Origin: Parvularia atlantis | Lineage: Eukaryota | Direction of reading: 5' to 3' | DNA length: 50,410 nt | NCBI GenBank assembly: GCA_943704415.1 | Contig: CALSCO010001240.1 | Location: 1-50,410 of the forward strand | In this document: piece after piece, positions 188 to 13,717 of the stretch | Layout of the letters: every line of letters starts with the position of its first letter | How positions within the stretch are numbered: position 1 is the stretch's first letter | Translations under genes and position numbers: made by a program | The notes under the pieces: model-generated | What the model was told of the DNA's origin: nothing | What the model saw: the letters and a program-made list of their open reading frames with translations, nothing else | Databases searched by the model: none

Positions 188-950
188 TCAGAAGCACGGA
201 TGGACGACTCGGACGGGTTGCGGCTGTGCTACTTGAACAAGCAATCTGCATCGAGCGCCGGCCCACGCAGTTTGTGCACGTGCTCCGGCTGTTCATCGCG
301 TACATCTTCGTGGCCATGCGCGTCGCACGATGCCGCCTGCGGATCTTTGACGAGTACTGGTGCGCGTCGCGTGCACCGCGCGCATCGCCTGAGCACACGC
401 GCCGCAGGCAGAGCATCGCCGCGTTCGTGCTTATGGTCATCGCCGCGACCGTGTACTGCGGCTCGCTGCTCGCCTTCTTCCAGTGGTTCCCAGCCGGGCG
501 CACGACGGTCGTAACGGTGGTCCGTGCGCCCGGCACGGCGTCCGCCCGCACAGGCCGGCTCATGTGCGCGCGCACAGTTCACGGTCGTCATCAACCCGAT
601 CATCTGGTCGTTCGTGGCGCTGCCGCTGTTGAACCGGCTGTTCAGGCACGAGCGCGCGCTGGCCGATTTCCGATTTCCAGGACGGTGCGCGGCCTGCGTG
701 CTGCCGCTGCCTCGCCTCGTTCACGTTCACGTGGACCACAGCGATCTCCAACAAGCGCATCGTGCTGAACGACGCCGACATGCCGACATCGTCGAGCACG
801 GGGCGGCACCCGAGCCTGTTTGACCGCGTGCTCACTGGCAGCAGCCCATCGTCGCTCAGCCCGACGGCGAAGACGGCGCTCTCGCCGATGACTAGCACAA
901 GCCTCGGAGGCGGGGACGCCACGGCCGACGCCCCCGCCGCCGCCATGTGA
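188..950 (+). pseudogene. 7TM GPCR-like paralog copy 1, 5'-truncated and frameshifted
   Basis: Exons encoding RLRIFDEYW / RQSIAAFVLMV / INPIIWSF..RHERALA / ISNKRIVLND match the intact paralogs. A 7-nt tandem duplication (cgatttc at 664-670 and 671-677) frameshifts the ALAEFQD motif, and exons 1-4 are not recognisable in 1-190. Confidence 0.7.
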
Positions 951-1100
951 AACGCGCCGTTTCCTCTGGCTGGCTGTCGCTCACTGAACAGTGCAGGCCA
1001 CCGGTCCGTGCACGGGGCCCGTTCCCGCGCGCCGATTGGCCGCGCTCTCCCCCATCGATTCTTCCACGACGCCGTTCGCACGCCGCGCGGCCCTCGCACC

Positions 1101-2657
1101 ATGTCCTCGCCGGTGCCCGTCCTGCCGTACCCGGGCCCGGGCAACGCGTCCACGCTCTTCCCGCCGGGCGGCACGCTCGTGCAGACCGCGGCCGACTGGA
1201 CGACGGGCGAGCGGTGCGCGGCCGCGCGCGGAATCCGCCTCCAGACGCGTCTCACACCTGTCGCTGCCGCGCAGATTCGCCGTGTACTTTGGCGTCGCCG
1301 TGTATGCCTCGACGCTGCTCGCCGTGGCCGTGCTCAACTGGCACCGCGCCGTGCCCTACGTCAAGGCGCGTCTCGTGCGGCTGAAACGCGCTGTCGCGGC
1401 GGCGTCTCAGCTTTTCCTTGCGCCGCGCGGCGCAGATCAAGGGCCTGCCGTTCGTCAACGCGATCGTCTTCTGCGCGAGCCTGTTCTGGTGCGCCCTCCG
1501 CGCGAGCGCGGGTCGCGCGTGAGGGCGCTGACGCGGGCTGCGCGCAGGTTCACGCTGCTCACGAGCATCCGCATTGTCCCGCAGAATGGCGCGTTTCTCG
1601 GTGCGTCGCTGGGCCGCGGCCGTGCCCCAGCCGTCGCTAAGCGGGCGCGGCCGCGGCGCAGTGTGCGACTTGTTCAACATGTGGCTGTTCACGGTCTCGG
1701 GCGCGGGCCTGATGATGGCGCTCGTGGGCCGCGCATACCGCTTCGACCTCATCCTCGTCCAGCGCAAACCCGCCACGGGCTGGCGCGCGCACCTGTTCCC
1801 GTTGCTCATCGGCAGCCCCGTGCTCGTGTACAACGTCATCGGCAGCATCCGGCACTCGGACGGCCCGTGGCTAATGGACAACGGCTGGACGATGTGCCTG
1901 CTCGAGGGGTGGTTCTCGTACGTCGCGGTGCGTGGCATGAGCTAGCACGCGTGCGCGCACTGCTGACGGACACGCAGATCATCCACTACCTGGCCATGTA
2001 CGTCGCGTTCATCGTCATCGCCGTGCGCGTGTCACGCAAGCGGCTGCGCATCTTTGACGAGTACTGGTGCGTGCACCCGCACTCCACGCGCGGCTTGCTC
2101 TCACGCACGCGACGTGCACACCAGGCAGAGCATCTTCTCGTTTGTGATGCTCGTGATCTGCACGGCCATCTACGCCGGCGTCACGGGCTCGGGGAACCAC
2201 TTCTACGCAGCCGGGCGCAGCGCGACCGTGATCGTGGTGCGTTGGCAACGCAGAAGAAGAACGTGCGCACATTAAGCCCGGGCCTCGCCCACGCGCGCGC
2301 GCGCCGCACGGCAGTTCACGCTCGTCACGACCGCGATCATGTGGTCGTTCCTGGCCGCGCCGCTGTTCAACCTGTTCTTCCGCCACGAGCGCGCCCTCGC
2401 CGAGTTCAAGAACGGTGCGCCCCTCGCCCTTGCACCGTGCACGCGCCCGCCCACCCTGTCTGTGCACAGCGATCAGCAACCGGCGCATCCTGCTCAACGA
2501 CGTCGACGACGCGTCCTCGTCGCACACGCGGCGCACTGGCATGCCGATGGGCTCCGAGTCGGCGGCCTCGCCCACGAGCGACCGTGACAGCGCGCTCGAG
2601 ATGAAGAACGCGGCCAGCACGGCCTCGCTCGAGTCGTCGCCCGTCGTCGGCTTCTAG
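1101..2657 (+). CDS. 7TM GPCR-like protein, copy 2 (class C/GABA-B-like membrane domain, short N-terminus); 9 exons
   Basis: Spliced model MSSPVPVLPYPGPGNASTLFPPGGT..DWTTGER|FAVYFGV..NWHRAVPYVK|IKGLPFVNAI..|..CDLFNMWLF..RAYRFDLILVQRK..|..RIFDEYW|RQSIFSF..|..RHERALAEFKN|AISNRRILLND..VVGF*. Seven hydrophobic segments; the introns keep frame and intron 2 has a GC donor at 1366. Confidence 0.85.
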
Positions 2658-11772: not shown

Positions 11773-12154
11773 CCCTCTTCCTGCTGCTGCGTACCGTGAG
11801 CGAGCGGACCGCGCAGCGAATGGGAAGCGGCAGGCGGCCCACGAGGAGGGCCGAGAACGTGGCACCACAATACGAGCGGGAAACACGTTGCATTCCTTTG
11901 ACGTGCGCGCGCAGCAGGCCATGGTGGCGCGCACGGCGGCGAGCGCACGGCGCAGCAGATAAGCCGCGCGCAGACGGGCAACGGAACGCAGCGCGCGCAG
12001 GCTGACGACGGGGAGGCGTAAACAGCCTGAGAGCAAAAACAACCTGCCGCCCGTTGTTTCAGCTGCGTCACGGCGCTGTTTCAGCCCTGTTCCCACGCTT
12101 CTGTCTTCCTTCAGTGGCGCCGGTCTTGCAGCATTTGCATCACGAACATACACT

Positions 12155-13717
12155 TCAAAAGCCGTCTGCAGGCGCGGCCGAGGACGACTGCTTGAGCTCG
12201 GCGGCGTCGCTGGTCGCGGGCGCGAGCAGCCCCACGCGGCGCAGCAGCGGCAGCCAGACGTTGTTGACGACGAGCACGATCGGATCGTAGGCCTCGAGCG
12301 GGTTGAGCGAGGTCAGGTCGGCCGCGTCCTCGACGATGCACCGGTTGTTGACGGCTGCGCGAGCGTGTCGCGGTAGCGTCAGCCTGAGGCGTGATCATCA
12401 GCACCCGCACGAACACGCGCACCGTCTGCAAACTCGGCGCTTGCGGCGTCGTGGCGGAACAGCAGGTTGTACACGGCCGCGCCAAAGCTGCCGTAGCACA
12501 TGACGTTGGTCGCCACCAGCAGCTGCACCACGCCGCGGATGGTGAGCGGCCGCGAGAGCCAGAGCGGCAGAGCGCGGCGCACCACGATCGCGACAAATGA
12601 GCGGCCCCAGGGGAGATATTGCGCCCCTGTCTGGTTGACAACCTGTGCGCGCGTGTCAGGTGCAGTGTCGCGAGTGCACGTGGAGGTGCACGGCGTAGAT
12701 GATGAGCACGATGCAGAACATGAGCAGCGAACCGAAGATGGCCCTGCGCCGCAGCCGCGTTGACACGCGCGCACGAGACCCGCCGCACGCACCAGTACTC
12801 GGAATAGATGCGCAGGCGCACCATGCGCAGGCGGTAGCTGAGCACAAATGTGAGGAAGCCGACAACGATGAGCTGCGCGTACTGCTCGCGCGAGCGCGCT
12901 CATCAGCTGTCAGTCGCCATGCGCCGCGCGCCGCGCACCACAAAGTAGATCCCGAGTGACTTGAGGTTGCACAGGACGCGCGTGCCGTTGACCAGCCACG
13001 GCCCGTCGGCGCTGTACGCGGTGATATGTGCGCAGATGACGATCACTGGCAGCCACAGCAGCGCGGGCGGGCCGTGCTGCGCCAGGAACGTGGGCGCGCG
13101 CCGCTGCACGAGTAGCACGTCGAGGCGCCACAGCCGCGCGAAGAAGCCAACGAACAGCGTCACGATCGGGACGATCCAGAGCCACACGTTCCAGAGCGAG
13201 CAGACTGCGGCGCATCGGGCCGTCACCCACCGGCACTGGCAGCCGCCGCACGCGACCCGCGCGGCAGCCCACTGGCATCCGCACCGAGGAATGCGCCCGT
13301 CTGCGGGATGATGCGCAGGCTCGTGAGCGACGTGAACCTGTGCGGCGTCGGGCGTGAGCGTTGCACGTTGCACGGCCGCGCACAGACCAAAACACGCTGG
13401 ACGACAACATGATCATGTTGACGTGCGCGATCCCAAGGATCTGCGCGCGGCTCAGCGACACGCCGTGCACGGCGGCCTCGCGGCGCACCTTGACGTAGCG
13501 CACGCTACGGTTGAGGTTGAGCACGACGAGCGCAAAGAGGTTGAACGCGTTGACGACGGCGCCGGCGCACACCGCAAACCTGGGTGAAACGTGGCGTTTC
13601 AGGCGGCTCGGCGCGGCGCGGAGGCGCGGCGCACCACTCGGCCGGCATCCAGTCGGCCGGCGACTCGTTGAACGTCGTGCCGGGCGGCCACACGGCCGTG
13701 TTGTTGGGGTACGCCAT
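12155..13717 (-). CDS. 7TM GPCR-like protein, copy 7
   Basis: MAYPNNTAVWPPGTTFNESPADWMPAEW..NLNRSVRYVK|ILGIAHVNMI..RIIPQTGAFL..CSLWNVWLW..RLWRLDVLLVQRR..RIYSEYW..LLFRHDAASAEFAD|AVNNRCIVED..APADGF*. Confidence 0.85.

Follow-up and report, generated by a model that had tools for sequence, protein, structure and literature searches.

A cluster of predicted class C-fold receptor genes without an ectodomain in Parvularia atlantis

A locus with seven paralogous copies

We analysed 50,410 nucleotides (nt) of Parvularia atlantis DNA (contig CALSCO010001240.1; "the window" below means this whole stretch), a eukaryotic sequence with 60-76% GC per kb and numerous short introns, in which positions 271-13717 hold a cluster of paralogous genes for seven-helix membrane proteins that we read as G protein-coupled receptors (GPCRs) with a predicted class C fold and no ectodomain. 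The original prediction for this DNA was a tandem family of seven ectodomain-less, GABA-B-like class C receptor genes with shared intron positions. Seven gene models, assembled by coordinates from candidate splice sites, bear out the seven copies and show seven shared introns, but two of the copies (A and C) are broken, leaving five intact genes (B, D, E, F and G), and the cluster is split by an unrelated membrane gene of 949 amino acids (aa) at 6941-9843. No further copy of the family was found in the remainder of the window.

The models were compared with contigs of run X1, which carries no RNA label on record and was guessed to be RNA; we take it as spliced RNA because its contigs skip introns. 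There are 34 contig joints in total, and all of those listed (15/15) coincide with modelled introns. Copy A has no contig cover and C and D have little, but this should not be taken as evidence that they are silent.

On the forward strand, copy A (271-950) retains only the region from transmembrane helix (TM) 5 to the C-terminal tail, in four exon remnants whose translation is frameshifted near the end of helix 8; its DNA is 66-68% identical to B, C and D, and no significant match to its 5' half was found upstream of it. Gene B (1101-2657, +), an intact seven-transmembrane (7TM) gene of nine exons encoding 354 aa, has RNA contigs over bins 1423-2844. Copy C (2726 to about 3330, +) was delimited by translation and DNA comparison; it lacks an ATG, meets a stop after the N-terminal motif, has lost the exons for TM1-TM5 and is frameshifted after TM6. 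Together, copies A and C share 66-81% DNA identity with parts of B and D. Gene D (3429-5030, +; nine exons, 379 aa) is the sister of B. The other three genes lie on the reverse strand: E (5193-6817; nine exons, 392 aa), in which RNA-contig joints support at least 7 of 8 introns; F (10041-11772; ten exons, 403 aa), with joints for at least 4 of 9 introns including one with a GC donor; and G (12155-13717; ten exons, 348 aa), likewise with joints for at least 4 of 9.

Each of the five intact genes splices to an open frame of 348-403 aa, with pairwise protein identities of 31-49%. They contain 42 introns of 45-80 nt, 40 of them GT..AG and 2 GC..AG, the GC donors lying at intron 2 in B and F. Seven intron positions are common to all five genes, one more is shared by B, D, F and G, and another by E, F and G. 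The seven hydrophobic helices that had been proposed are present in all five proteins, with an eighth, weak segment in the tail of G. Across the five, 48 alignment columns are invariant, and these, together with the coincidence of the listed contig joints with modelled introns, exclude chance. The family signature had been given as FPPGxTxxxSxxxWxxxE, which occurs exactly in only two genes (D and F); a looser form, [FW]P-x11-W-xxx-E, is found in all five.

Short N-termini and a predicted class C fold

The intact proteins carry about 30-40 aa before TM1, and none of the five models includes a large N-terminal Venus flytrap or other binding domain, in agreement with what had been predicted. For E and G, the RNA contigs hold little sequence ahead of the ATG: the E contig has 336 nt in front of exon 5, and because 280 of these belong to the coding sequence, at most 56 nt are left before the ATG, while the G contig leaves at most 80 nt. 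Gaps upstream of the intact genes measure 98-382 nt; E and G stand head-to-head with neighbouring genes at 123 and 283 nt, while B, D and F begin 150, 98 and 382 nt beyond the preceding copy, with in-frame stops upstream of B and D. Gene F, whose 5' end lies beyond RNA-contig cover, has a further ATG upstream in the same frame, from which the protein could be about 50 aa longer. Because contigs do not reveal true 5' ends, the N-termini of homologs also matter: the intronless, full-length homolog P0006 has about 24 aa before TM1, and in the gene at L001, a locus of another eukaryote, an in-frame stop directly precedes the ATG and the first exon encodes 36 aa. An N-x-S/T sequon precedes TM1 in 4 of the 5 intact proteins, which would fit an outward-facing N-terminus.

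A class C TM7 typically carries a motif of the FxPKxY type (PK). This motif is absent from the five proteins, which have the Pro in two cases (B and D) and never a Lys after it. Other class C features, as listed in PMC11621567, are a disulfide between C3.29 and extracellular loop (ECL) 2, an ionic lock between K3.50 and D/E6.35, N2.39 and R3.53. All five intact proteins share a TM2 Asn, a TM3 Cys, R-x-x-R at the end of TM3, an ECL2 Cys and a Glu before TM6. The C3.29 and ECL2 cysteines are in place at the residue level in 5/5 (a putative bond). Matched by motif and spacing, the R-x-x-R and the Glu would supply the basic 3.50/3.53 pair and the acidic residue before TM6, with Arg in place of Lys at 3.50; the TM3 string originally quoted, CDLW...RLWRLD, turned out to mix the sequence of F with that of E/G. 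In a 22-row alignment the ECL2 Cys does not vary, and it ends the ECL2 hairpin in the model of P0006, a homolog that lacks the TM2 Asn.

Fold tests were run on models of P0006 and of a fungal homolog, P0041. The results are extended to the five spliced proteins through alignments, in which each of them matches P0006 over 269-291 aa with 28-33% identity (E 1e-31 to 1e-48). The P0006 model has seven helices, an ECL2 beta-hairpin and helix 8 (predicted local distance difference test, pLDDT, 75). Foldseek returned 14 matches to it at E<=1e-3, and all those listed (13/13) were class C, led by GPR156 (E 5e-5, template-modelling score by target 0.72, 13% identity) and then GABA-B, with no non-GPCR fold on top. 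All 50 rows of a second structural comparison were class C (Z 20.2-22.0). When 48,161 chains were searched independently of Foldseek, class C entries took 16 of the top 17 rows (Z 19.3-20.9, root-mean-square deviation (rmsd) 2.7-3.9, 238-270 residues aligned), the remaining entry being a designed GPCR-like protein; GPRC5D followed at Z 18.6 (8% identity), and class A entries reached at most 17.9. For the P0041 model, 15 of 16 Foldseek matches at E<=1e-3 were class C, with CaSR first. Since both homolog models match class C in Foldseek, and P0006 also does so in the Foldseek-independent search, we consider a class C GPCR fold a well-supported prediction for the window proteins.

The class C part of the original label is therefore supported, on two homolog models and the residue landmarks, whereas on its GABA-B-like part the models were divided. 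For P0006 the VIA Z-scores of GABA-B, mGlu, TAS1R, GPR156 and GPR158 were tied within 1, and the ranking of subfamilies differed by homolog, with GPR156 and GABA-B on top for P0006 and CaSR for P0041, such that the models do not single out GABA-B from other class C receptors. Sequence profiles gave little: 5 of 18 homologs, four of them from the P0006 cluster, matched Pfam 7tm_3 (PF00003) weakly and below its cut-off, the best spanning positions 16-247 of 251, and none of 22 single exons matched Pfam. NCBIfam gave no match for three homologs, and sequence searches of the PDB with an exon profile, with P0006 and with a nine-row profile returned nothing meaningful. In the ESM Atlas, one exon retrieved only scores under 0.9; the homolog P0001 retrieved first an unnamed eukaryotic cluster (0.93) and second a 7tm_3 cluster (0.89, a lead only), with weak structure rows. 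Because the Pfam, flytrap and TM7-motif tests failed, we name the genes a class C-fold family and not GABA-B receptors.

Conservation across the five proteins is higher in the intracellular loops (ICLs) and helix 8 than in the extracellular parts (0.57 vs 0.45, p=0.035). The best-conserved regions are ECL1 (0.73) and ICL1 (0.67), and the outer half of TM5 (0.18) is one of the least conserved. The conserved inner face therefore fits one shared transducer.

Relatives, a shared intron element and neighbouring genes

A profile of the largest exon from the five genes, covering 88 positions, was searched against 1.84 billion representatives and matched 12 proteins at E<=0.001. Ten of these are unnamed and two are hypothetical proteins of the kickxellomycete fungus Martensiomyces pterosporus, of which a third, full-length protein was found with the nine-row profile. 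The homologs P0001 and P0003 hold in one piece what the window genes split over several exons, which independently confirms the window reading frames. In word-index searches, which are weak evidence on the range of the family, the exon profile had one match among longer proteins, P0006 found only itself, and the nine-row profile found three fungal proteins besides P0006; a metagenome scan with P0006 found no locus.

The L001 gene (1936-3513, +, in a 12.8-kb locus with 59% GC) is a single family member encoding 441 aa, 32-39% identical to the five window proteins. It has just three introns, each matching an intron position of the window genes, and a similar P...S...W...E N-terminal peptide; because this related peptide recurs in L001, the N-terminal motif cannot be called private, as had been claimed. 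A tree of 13 rows pairs B with D as sisters (97/96) and places all five genes in a group of unresolved branching order (98/97) together with L001, P0001 and P0002; monophyly of the five was neither recovered nor rejected (p-AU 0.227, approximately unbiased test). Only the part formed by B, D, A and C appears, from these comparisons, clearly a local expansion. Calling the family lineage-specific was likewise too strong, given the introns shared with L001, the intronless full-length P0006, the distant fungal relatives and the lack of a supported clade for the five genes. Contigs of both runs also match pieces of D, F and G (3881, 10553-11369, 11099-13117 and 13486-13525) at 90-95% and in jumbled order; these short matches suggest that more paralogs may lie elsewhere in the genome.

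An element of about 30 nt that starts CTGAAACGC recurs in the second intron of B, D and E; intron-pair scores place it at 1380-1410 (+) within intron 1366-1435 of B, near 3694 within 3685-3741 (+) of D, and near 6545 within 6522-6588 (-) of E. The pairings of these three introns are the top 3 of 705 cross-gene intron pairs, with scores of 40-42 (mean 17.6, standard deviation 4.3), despite protein identities of only 32-36% between E and B or D. It may have been conserved by descent as a splicing control element or as a variant branch point. Its potential for a hairpin did not go beyond that of shuffled sequences, and a hidden exon at this position was rejected: a similar peptide can be read in B, D and E, but its frame is inconsistent. 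Separately, the 8-mer TGAAACGC occurs 7 times in the window against 2.1 expected, always within the first 15.7 kb.

The 949-aa gene that splits the cluster (6941-9843, +), head-to-head with E, has an odd architecture: about eight hydrophobic segments come first, then a long repeat-like region that weakly matches the Receptor L domain (E 0.003). Its one intron is skipped by an RNA contig. Head-to-head with G lies another seven-helix gene (14001-15658, +; ten exons, 389 aa, about 50 aa before TM1), which by BLAST is unrelated to the window family (best E 0.25) and for which three exons gave no convincing Pfam match. Single-exon Pfam searches over 15707-48000 matched CUE and EAP30/Vps36, WD40, E2F/DP, RNA polymerase Rpb2, START, Pumilio and Arp2/3 p34. 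A many-exon channel gene at about 35700-40275 (+) has an Ion_trans match, and its motifs make it look like an IP3 receptor; if it is one, a classic output of G-protein signalling is present in the organism.

Proposed mechanism, alternatives and known systems

With middling confidence, we propose that the genes encode flytrap-less receptors of predicted class C fold that are gated by ligand: a small molecule or lipid, bound within the helix bundle, would switch on a heterotrimeric G protein. In this model, TM1 would act as a signal anchor with the N-terminus facing outward. Above the pocket, in the place of the stalk of other class C receptors, a lid would be built from ECL1, the conserved P...W...E peptide of the N-terminus and the ECL2 hairpin, which the two invariant cysteines would link to TM3. 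A putative ionic lock between Arg(3.50) and Glu(6.35) would keep the receptor inactive before ligand arrives; one shared transducer would dock on the conserved inner face (ICL1, ICL2, ICL3 and helix 8), and the Ser/Thr-rich tails may take desensitising phosphorylation. The cluster would have grown and decayed by local duplication (the sisters B and D, the remnants A and C) atop older paralogs. There is a precedent in GPRC5A, a class C receptor with a short N-terminus reported to be activated by microbial aromatic amines via 7TM residues (bioRxiv 10.1101/2021.12.16.472979).

Several observations weigh against this proposal. The class C fold was computed for homologs and not for the window's own spliced proteins, and the best 7tm_3 match among those homologs (21.2 bits, E 2.5e-4) lies below the gathering score of 33.5. 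Generic residue numbers were set by motif and spacing and not by a residue-level structural alignment, with 22 residues from Cys to Arg against 21 in class C numbering, and at position 3.50 the usual Lys is replaced by Arg. The outer halves of TM3, TM5, TM6 and TM7 are no more variable than the inner halves (0.302 vs 0.304, p=0.49), and there is no positive sign of diversification of the ligand pocket. In gene G, the position of exon 5 in the RNA contig (588) fits only if the 49-nt intron 7 (12643-12691, -) is retained, and this intron carries a stop that would leave a 240-aa, six-helix protein; its ends are normal and its position is the same as in E, F and L001, and the contig may represent an unspliced or alternative form.

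Four alternatives deserve weighing beside the ligand-gated receptor. It is quite improbable that the proteins work as GPR156 does, as dimers that are constitutively active, hold a structural lipid within the bundle and signal tonically through G proteins without a sensory ligand. The likeness to GPR156, the top Foldseek match of the P0006 model, extends to an architecture with an N-terminus of 45 residues, but the same source gives GPR156 a Ser at 6.35 and an Ile at 3.29 (PMC11621567), where the five proteins have Glu and Cys at motif-equivalent positions, and five diverged paralogs would seem to exceed what tonic signalling needs.

We think it similarly improbable that the family provides the signalling half of a two-part receptor, binding no ligand itself and pairing with a flytrap-bearing class C receptor or a soluble binding protein. 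GABA-B2 pairs with a flytrap-bearing partner in just this role, and the strongly conserved outer surface of the window proteins (ECL1 and the N-terminal motif) could serve as a docking site, yet folding around the disulfide explains the ECL1 conservation equally well, and no partner gene was recognised among the window genes sampled. A pairing of this kind would suit the dimeric action of class C receptors described in PMC10445921 and the stand-alone flytrap protein reported in Entamoeba (PMC12965686).

The third alternative, descent from 7TM proteins with a regulator of G protein signalling (RGS) domain that was later lost, or signalling without G-protein activation through arrestin-like adaptors or a separate RGS, is also quite doubtful. 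No RGS domain was seen in the five tails (about 50-100 aa, of low complexity) or in the 18 homologs scanned with Pfam, many of which are fragments, and no 7TM-RGS sequence is among the 12 matches of the exon profile, which spans only 88 positions, with longer fused forms covered by a weak search. What speaks for it is the weakness of the 7tm_3 scores, the reported presence of 7TM-RGS proteins in many protists, chytrids and unicellular holozoans (PMC3971589), and the resemblance of an AtRGS1 7TM model to mGlu1 (PMC11580166).

Finally, it is highly improbable that the models are incomplete and that upstream exons or trans-splicing add an ectodomain: the contig of F ends inside exon 1 and the 5' side of the RNA is seen only for E and G, but the short upstream gaps, two of them head-to-head with neighbours, the in-frame stops and the short N-termini of P0006 and L001 all argue otherwise.

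A broader and rather doubtful proposal is that the family belongs to an old, unnamed class C branch spread over several non-animal eukaryotes and early-diverging fungi, never with a flytrap, using the TM pocket as its primary ligand site, missed by Pfam-based surveys and forming here a chemosensory cluster. If true, such a branch would offer a living model of a class C receptor before the fusion of binding domains. Non-animal class C receptors are surveyed with the 7tm_3 profile, with emphasis on the antiquity of binding domains; since the homologs of this family score under the Pfam cut-off, such surveys could overlook it. In mGlu and CaSR the class C transmembrane pocket is an allosteric drug site; because the window family, unlike GPR156, appears to keep both the ionic lock and the TM3-ECL2 cysteines, it could be a compact natural test of that pocket as a primary ligand site, and of whether flytrap-less class C receptors are ancestral or arose by repeated losses. 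Surprise is limited, since ectodomain-less class C receptors are already described in animals (GPR156 and GPRC5A-D; PMC11621567); the window family is an unnamed variant of the class C fold without an ectodomain, outside animals.

No description of the family was found in the open-access literature, where supplements (Supplementary file 12 of PMC12716839 and Dataset S1 of PMC3251606) may list ectodomain-less members. Class C expansions outside animals are reported, mostly with binding domains (PMC3251606, PMC10445921, PMC3971589), and choanoflagellate glutamate receptors earlier reported without extracellular domains were then found to have them in some cases (PMC12716839).

Among known systems, the 7TM-RGS proteins offer a likeness of architecture, with a short N-terminus in AtRGS1. 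The AtRGS1 7TM model is reported as closest to class C and class A (PMC11580166). The window family differs in having no RGS domain. The non-metazoan glutamate-type GPCRs (Dictyostelium Grl, chytrid and Allomyces 7tm_3 proteins) resemble the window family as lineage-level class C-type expansions outside animals (PMC10445921, PMC3251606), but they mostly bear large N-terminal binding domains, more than 90% of the periplasmic-binding type (PMC3251606), and were found via the 7tm_3 profile, below whose cut-off the window family's homologs fall. GPRC5A-D are class C receptors with N-termini of 21-54 residues (PMC11621567), and GPRC5A is described as binding microbial amines in its 7TM region (bioRxiv 10.1101/2021.12.16.472979), whereas the Z-score of GPRC5D lies below those of GABA-B and GPR156, and no sequence link to the window family was found. 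GABA-B (GB1/GB2) comes close in structure (Z 20.8-21.9, rmsd about 3 over about 250 residues, for the P0006 model) and has equivalents of the TM2 Asn, TM3 Cys, basic pair and acidic residue before TM6, while the window family differs in lacking the Venus flytrap and the PK motif in TM7, in its Arg at 3.50 and in an identity of only 11-16%; Z does not set GABA-B apart from mGlu, CaSR, TAS1R and GPR158. The human orphan GPR156 is alike in its class C 7TM region, its short N-terminus and its place as top match of the homolog model; PMC11621567 describes it as a constitutively active receptor with a TM5/6 dimer, without the lock and the disulfide. GPR156 lacks C3.29 and an acidic 6.35, whereas the window family has both at motif-equivalent positions, in clustered paralogs outside animals.

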